Source: Escherichia coli (GTDB lineage Bacteria > Pseudomonadota > Gammaproteobacteria > Enterobacterales > Enterobacteriaceae). Taken from it: 64,000 nucleotides of DNA. Where the stretch lies: NCBI RefSeq assembly GCF_001677475.2, contig NZ_CP015229.1; one strand, 5' to 3'. The notes below the pieces were generated by a model. It saw only the letters and a list, made by a program, of their open reading frames with translations, was not told where the DNA came from and made no database searches. Below, piece by piece: positions 39,238-39,816 of this stretch (its first letter is position 1; each line of letters starts with the position of its first letter). Both the position numbers and the translations under genes were made by a program.

Positions 39238-39816
39238 GAAATAACCGATGAATATGATGACCGTGCCGTTTCACGGCAACTCTCTTTATGTGGTTAACCA
39301 TAATGGCGAGCCATACGTTCCCATGAAGCCTGTTGTTGCGGGGATGGGGCTAGCCTGGCAATCACAGTTGGCTAAGTTAAGCAGCGTTTTGCGTCAACTA
39401 TAACGGAAATCGTTATGGTTGCTGAGGATGGGAAACGACGCAATATGGTATCCCTGCCACTTCGAAAACTTGCGGGCTGGTTACAAACCATCAATCCCAA
39501 CAAAGTTAAACCTTAAATCCGCGACAGGGTCATTCAGTATCAGGAAGAGTGCGACGATGTTCTCTATGAATACTGGACGAAGGGTTTTGTCGTTAATCCC
39601 CGTCGAATGAGCGTGATGGAAGAACTCAATCAGGTATGCGCTGACATGAAATGGGATAAAAACATCGCCAGTTTGTTTGGTACCGGGCTGAGTGAGTGGA
39701 AGTCGGTTAAAGCTGCACATGTATCAAAAATTCGCACGTTGATAAACGAAGCGAATCTGCTGATTGATTTTGTCCTGGCTGATACAGGCAAAGGAAAAAT
39801 CACAAAGACGGATTGA
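39238..39816 (+). pseudogene. Antirepressor-like gene fragmented across three frames
   Basis: ATG 39238 opens MNMMTVPFHGNSLYVVNHNGEPYVPMKPVVAGMGLAWQSQLAKL then stop; continuation appears in other frames (ORFs 39419..39610 and 39607..39816). Family assignment tentative. Confidence 0.4.

Follow-up and report, generated by a model that had tools for sequence, protein, structure and literature searches.

A circulating pseudogene of an optional Ant-N/ORF11CD3 gene in the lysis cassette of a decaying RacR-type prophage of Escherichia coli

The antirepressor Ant of phage P22 is a 300-aa protein of the immI region that combines an N-terminal P22_AR_N domain with a C-terminal P22_AR_C domain (PF10548) and is subject to arc/mnt/sar control. 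Phage 933W encodes a protein (accession no. AAD25451; phrog_524) annotated as a "phage antirepressor N-terminal domain-containing protein," the gene for which is found between those for the endolysin R and Rz, in the order R, a spacer of ~270 bp, ant, a 44-aa ORF, and Rz/Rz1. A further protein annotated as an antirepressor of Stx phages, Ant of phi24B (the "lytic induction enhancer"), resembles the C-terminal part of P22 Ant (82% across the final 104 residues); its gene maps to the early/nin region, ahead of roi. Deletion of this gene left superinfection unchanged, and a role in efficient induction was proposed by the authors of that work (PMC3064807, PMC3430580). The small antirepressors GfoA and GfhA of the Gifsy phages and Rem of Qin control non-cleavable repressors, namely, short proteins that lack an Ala-Gly cleavage site and are inactivated via a protein partner (PMC3121763, PMC10448788). 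Finally, P22 also encodes Rha, in which a Phage_pRha domain is joined to a C-terminal ORF11CD3 domain; its gene (39575-40180 in locus L006) lies directly past Rz/Rz1.

We analyzed a 64,000-nt stretch of an Escherichia coli contig (NZ_CP015229.1 of assembly GCF_001677475.2; hereafter, the window) that carries a lambdoid prophage adjacent to potC. In its lysis cassette, fragments of an ant-like gene sit in the interval between R and Rz. The cassette includes a class II holin, S, inside the ORF at 37068-37343, and a two-gene insert lies between holin and endolysin, with one gene on the plus strand (37347-37989) and the other on the minus strand (37999-38367). R is intact (38442-38975, plus strand; 177 aa; annotated as a lysozyme in homologous loci and matching PF00959 in locus L092) and is followed by a 272-bp intergenic spacer (38976-39247, plus strand) containing a terminator-like hairpin at 39085-39105 that is nevertheless statistically not unusual (z = -1.44). 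The ant-like pseudogene, a member of the P22_AR_N plus ORF11CD3 family according to the Pfam and PHROG matches of the intact protein, occupies 39248-39816 on the plus strand, where its 569 nt are collinear with the 570 nt of intact alleles. A conserved, strongly hydrophobic 44-aa ORF (39831-39965, plus strand; phrog_4906), which travels with ant and starts ~15 bp downstream of it in most related loci, may encode a small protein of the lysis cassette that resides in the membrane; in 933W, the corresponding ORF, placed after ant and ahead of Rz, bears no annotation. Rz (39977-40435, plus strand; 152 aa; PF03245 in locus L092) and the nested Rz1 (40188-40394, plus strand; position in agreement with the Rz1 annotation in 933W) are both intact, and the terminase genes extend from 40891 on. 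The window copy thus has both the R/Rz position and the trailing 44-aa ORF of the 933W Ant type and belongs to the same family. It differs from 933W Ant in having a frameshift, a nonsense codon, and an R136W substitution, and the two prophages differ in that the one in the window is a non-Stx element with RacR immunity, whereas 933W has an immunity region based on an S24-domain CI.

Pairwise blastn comparison with E. coli 08-00022, which harbors the closest sister prophage (83% coverage, 97.9% identity), delimits a mosaic "ant module" of ~1056 bp (38981-40036, plus strand) that runs from the spacer through ant and the 44-aa ORF into the 5' end of Rz. Only the final ~136 nt of the R-ant spacer (39111-39247) are common to two loci that have an M15 metallopeptidase endolysin instead (L007 and L008; 99% identity); hence, the left edge of the module lies just past the hairpin. 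This stretch, 39111-39247, could be the site of an unrecognized regulatory element; no sigma-70-like promoter, LexA box, or Rfam match was found in the spacer as a whole (38976-39247).

To describe the family, we made the domain calls on an intact allele with 99% identity to the window copy. The 189-aa intact protein contains a P22_AR_N domain (PF10547; residues 5-113, E = 4.3e-45) and, at its C terminus, an ORF11CD3 domain (PF10549; residues 122-163, E = 5e-07). It matches phrog_524 ("anti-repressor Ant") only at positions 7-209 of 317. The domain shared with P22 Ant is P22_AR_N (48% identity, residues 1-126); BLASTP similarity stops at residue 126, the family lacks P22_AR_C, and its gene lies in the lysis cassette rather than in an immI region. 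By megablast, the gene is present in 303 phage records, which for the most part are Stx phages and in which it is labeled ant or antirepressor, and in 1,347 of 5,426 complete E. coli genomes. The two-domain form of ~188 aa is a stable family across Enterobacterales (2,382 matches at E <= 1e-5); all 120 homologues listed have both domains, and the majority are 174-199 aa long (range, 151-212). Among the best 80 IMG/VR loci, which keep the gene order R, ant, 44-aa ORF, Rz, it is intact as a single ORF in 75 and has been broken independently in the other 5. The dN/dS ratio between two intact alleles is 0.13, and intact alleles in phages are under purifying selection.

By both architecture and position, P22 Rha is a closer parallel to this family than P22 Ant is. 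Like the intact window-family protein, Rha consists of an N-terminal regulator-type domain and an ORF11CD3 C terminus and is encoded in the late-operon neighborhood beside the lysis genes; the two differ in the N-terminal domain (Phage_pRha versus P22_AR_N) and in that rha follows Rz/Rz1 whereas ant precedes Rz. The lysis-cassette neighborhood thus seems to gather regulator-like accessory genes with interchangeable N-terminal domains. Literature searches recovered no experimental study of the ant gene between R and Rz, a PDB sequence search gave no homologue with E < 0.1, and PADLOC defense models matched none of Ant, the gene between S and R, the reverse-strand ORF, and the 44-aa ORF. We predict with moderate to low confidence that the intact protein is a late-expressed regulator, in which the N-terminal domain would have a winged-helix/KilA-N/APSES-like fold for binding either DNA or another regulator, and the ORF11CD3 tail would be helical. 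At the same level of confidence, the protein would act after commitment to lysis, like P22 Rha or the Bro-type genes, rather than as a trigger of induction. The P22_AR_N domain may have a putative repressor-binding role.

The lesions of the window copy were mapped by alignment to the intact 570-nt ETEC1747 allele (protein accession no. WP_063085915), to 933W ant, and to the copy from strain GB089. The window copy is 99.2% identical to the ETEC1747 allele and 92% identical to 933W ant, and within the gene it differs from the former at exactly four points, one indel and three substitutions. The first is a 1-bp deletion of an A in codon 45 (39381/39382, plus strand), which lies outside any homopolymer run and gives TTAAG^CAGCG where intact alleles have TTAAGACAGCG. 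The second is a G-to-T change at 39514 that converts the codon GAA at 39514-39516 to TAA, replacing E90 with a stop. The remaining two are a missense C-to-T change at 39652 (CGG to TGG at 39652-39654; R136W), also seen against the intact alleles, and a synonymous T-to-C change at 39747 (AAT to AAC at 39745-39747) seen against the ETEC1747 allele. The copy therefore lacks the single uninterrupted ORF of a functional member of the family because of the 1-bp deletion and the TAA codon. Decay of this gene has happened independently more than once, as the frameshift in the GB089 copy is another one, caused by an additional A within an A run; PGAP annotates this copy as a frameshifted pseudogene.

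Alignment to intact alleles thus bears out the proposal of a first-pass annotation of the window that an antirepressor-like gene between the endolysin and Rz is fragmented, with some correction of the details. That annotation had the first reading frame start at 39238 and stop after ~50 codons; the stop is right, as the stub ORF (39248-39403, plus strand) has 51 codons, 44 of them native and 7 out of frame, before a TAA at 39401-39403, but the start is the ATG of MNMMTVPFHGNSLYVVNHNGEPY at 39248, preceded by a Shine-Dalgarno-like AAGGA at 39235-39239. Continuations had also been placed in two other frames. In fact, homologous sequence resumes after the stub in one phase only, that of 39250, and encodes ...VKQRFASTITEIVMVAEDGKRRNMVSLPLRKLAGWLQTINPNKVKP, a stop, and then IRDRVIQYQEEC...KITKTD up to the terminal stop; the ORFs at 39415-39516 and 39607-39816 share this phase and are split by the in-frame TAA at 39514-39516. 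The ORF at 39419-39610 only extends the N-terminal frame in the wrong phase and shows no homology. The C-terminal fragment (39607-39816, plus strand; 69 aa) retains the entire ORF11CD3 domain, with phrog_16011 matching residues 121-189, and no Shine-Dalgarno-like sequence is visible upstream of it.

The reading that we regard as very probably correct is that 39248-39816 is an inherited pseudogene of a ~188-aa Ant-N/ORF11CD3 accessory gene, part of an optional R-Rz module of many 933W-like phages, and that its loss is neutral and has no bearing on how RacR is inactivated. If late transcription takes place, translation would initiate at the ATG behind the intact Shine-Dalgarno-like sequence (39235-39250) and yield a 51-aa stub with 44 native residues, which would be without most of P22_AR_N. 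No start signal for translation is evident in the downstream pieces, which would probably yield no functional product, although the C-terminal 69-aa ORF with its intact ORF11CD3 domain could in principle be produced at a low level. Since Q-modified RNA polymerase resists terminators, a polar effect on Rz/Rz1 would not be expected. S, R, Rz, and Rz1 are intact, and lysis capacity is therefore unaffected. The loss of ant would represent neutral decay within a resident, already defective prophage and would be irrelevant to the question of whether RacR is inactivated and by what means.

A regulatory significance had been attached to the lesions by the first-pass annotation, namely, that loss of an antirepressor, together with a non-cleavable repressor, would leave the prophage with no obvious induction route. 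The premise concerning the repressor is reasonable. The immunity region is of the RacR/YdaS/YdaT type, which replaces CI/Cro/CII, with the roles of the three proteins being as described previously (PMC9986795, PMC5700373, PMC5700377). The 158-aa RacR-type repressor (24242-24718, minus strand) scores 246.8 bits against the NCBIfam equivalog NF049929 (cutoff, 200 bits); a Pfam search with it came back empty, and it has neither an S24 nor another Pfam peptidase domain. Divergent from racR are a YdaS-like Cro equivalent (24822-25166; Pfam YdaS_toxin) and a YdaT-like CII equivalent (25150-25575; Pfam YdaT_toxin). The N-terminal domain of the ant-like product is homologous to that of P22 Ant, antirepressors do govern non-cleavable repressors in the Gifsy phages and Qin (PMC3121763, PMC10448788), and neither another obvious antirepressor gene nor an equivalent of GfoA, GfhA, or Rem was found in the window.

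Even so, it is highly improbable that this gene was the antirepressor of the prophage and that its inactivation removed the sole induction route. Apart from the missing P22_AR_C domain, the genomic context argues against it. The ant-like gene lies downstream of Q (32836-33531) on the late strand, and its position, strand, and synteny suggest that it would be part of the Q-dependent late transcript. A promoter search over 38900-40700 found no sigma-70-like site. The LexA pattern CTGT-N8-ACAG occurs only within late genes, at 47234 and 55035, and the best LexA-like 20-mer across the whole window agrees with the consensus at 12 of 20 positions, none of these being credible. Rfam scans, at gathering thresholds over the whole window and with permissive settings over 38900-40900, returned nothing in or near ant. 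Because of this lysis-cassette position downstream of Q, with no promoter or LexA box of its own, the ant product would be predicted from synteny to appear only after induction. The gene lacks the promoter LexA box of SOS-controlled antirepressors of the Tum/GfoA type as well as the promoter of its own, outside the late operon, that characterizes the P22 Ant type (Arc/Mnt/sar), and no arc- or mnt-like genes are seen near it.

Comparison with other prophages points in the same direction. The sister prophage of E. coli 08-00022 has a RacR that is 100% identical to the one in the window yet is devoid of the ant module, so that R abuts Rz in pairwise blastn alignments, whereas 933W has an intact ant beside a CI carrying Peptidase_S24, i.e., a repressor of the cleavable type. 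With ant absent alongside an identical RacR and present alongside an S24 CI, the gene and the repressor type are unlinked. The precedents from the Gifsy phages and Qin do not extend to this gene, as GfoA and Rem are small, unrelated proteins that are encoded elsewhere in their prophages (PMC10448788, PMC3121763), and Ant of phi24B is likewise a different gene. Tail assembly, moreover, is defective in any case (see below). Nothing shows that the ant-like gene was a former induction route, and the regulatory interpretation is not supported. More generally, the R-Rz gene of 933W-like phages owes its antirepressor label solely to its N-terminal resemblance to P22 Ant, and the presence or decay of this gene should not be taken in annotation as a guide to prophage inducibility. 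The locus makes neither the function of ant nor the inactivation of RacR easier to study.

A different regulatory role can be conceived, in which the late Ant-N/ORF11CD3 protein would be a trans-acting antirepressor that, rather than setting off its own phage, inactivates the repressors of co-resident or superinfecting heteroimmune lambdoid phages, non-cleavable ones of the RacR type included, after one prophage has been induced. Its repeated decay in resident prophages would then reflect selection at the level of hosts with several prophages against chain induction. We consider this, too, to be highly improbable and favor neutral loss of an accessory gene.

It is very unlikely that the pieces are separate genuine small genes, one for an N-terminal peptide, one corresponding to the middle ORF, and one for an ORF11CD3 protein of 69 aa. 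PHROGs families do exist for single parts of the protein (phrog_14366 for the N-terminal part alone and phrog_16011 for the C-terminal 69 aa alone), and gene calls of 66 or 69 aa cover the C-terminal ORF in public contigs. However, the alignment with intact ant of 933W-like phages that the first-pass annotation had suggested as a check settles the matter in favor of one gene: all of the pieces fall in order along one 189-aa ORF (99% nucleotide identity), from which exactly one indel and one nonsense codon separate them. The gene is a single ORF in 75 of the 80 related loci mentioned above, and the internal ATGs of the window copy have no evident ribosome-binding site.

That the frameshift and the stop are sequencing or assembly errors in a gene that is truly intact is extremely unlikely. 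Some assembly errors are conceivable, given that the nearby gene at 37347-37989 (phrog_1085) is frameshifted at a run of nine G's (37645-37653). Its 213-aa homologue is intact in E. coli 08-00022 and in locus L092, and since the latter is nearly identical to the window but has no such run, the shift is either private to the window genome or a homopolymer sequencing error. The ant deletion, in contrast, is not part of a homopolymer run, and a substitution accounts for the second lesion. When the 51-aa stub and the 69-aa ORF from the C terminus were looked up as exact sequences, nine contigs (L087-L095) were retrieved, five of them from NCBI assemblies, one from an ENA assembly, and three from Logan SRA runs, with one contig present in at least 20 samples. 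All nine are 99.7-100% identical to the window, contain the diagnostic k-mer across the deletion, and combine the deletion with both the TAA and the W codon. The exact stub is called as a product in at least six public contigs. Confirmation of the frameshifts in raw reads had been advised at the outset; the recurrence of the same three lesions in nine independent contigs takes the place of that check, and largely refutes an error. The joint recurrence in independently assembled data indicates a real, inherited, and circulating allele: the copy has disabling lesions relative to intact orthologues that are repeated in independent sequence data, as befits a genuine pseudogene.

The deletion and the nonsense lesion are both absent from 5,426 complete E. 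coli genomes, in which the best match over 39340-39560 is 99.1%, a difference that corresponds exactly to the two lesions; they therefore are the mark of one lineage and not a common polymorphism. An exact 40-mer spanning the deletion had no match among GTDB representative genomes, and the window allele is not among deposited phage genomes, where the best identity is 93.6%. What this decaying prophage retains of ant is thus an ordinary pseudogene that is already in circulation and derives from an optional gene of the late region. There is a negligible chance that a programmed ribosomal frameshift, of the kind known in phage late genes such as those for the G/GT tail chaperones, restores the full-length protein, as TTAAG^CAGCG contains no slippery heptamer, intact homologues require no frameshift, and the in-frame TAA downstream would still stop the protein at residue 89.

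The pseudogene joins several other signs of a decaying, tail-defective RacR-type prophage, among them the frameshifted neighbor between holin and endolysin. Another is an IS21-family element (52611-55020) in a lambda-type tape-measure gene, with imperfect terminal inverted repeats of 48 nt (52611-52658 and 54973-55020), istA at 52704-54203, and istB at 54200-54955. The N-terminal part of the tape-measure gene spans 50507-52615, and the C-terminal part resumes at ~55021-55475. This split renders the prophage defective regardless of ant, and it should be unable to build tails. A nanS-p-type esterase is reduced to its DUF1737 N-terminal part (36679-37029; 116 aa), and the same truncation is annotated in the 08-00022 sister prophage. 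The full prophage is not present in any complete E. coli genome searched.

Downstream of Q lies a gene for a 237-aa AraC-family HTH protein (34082-34795; phrog_1450), which occupies the position of stx in Stx phages, stx itself being absent; genes for tRNA-Met (34822-34897) and tRNA-Arg (34999-35075) follow just downstream. On the host side, mfd (4651-8160, minus strand) has a best match of only 98.5% among 5,425 complete E. coli genomes, and the DNA may come from an Escherichia lineage that has been little sampled. Three RNAs, all within the prophage, score above the Rfam gathering threshold: the DicF sRNA (22456-22507, minus strand), the sok antitoxin RNA of a hok/sok module (30652-30826, plus strand), and the STnc100 sRNA (35877-36052, plus strand).
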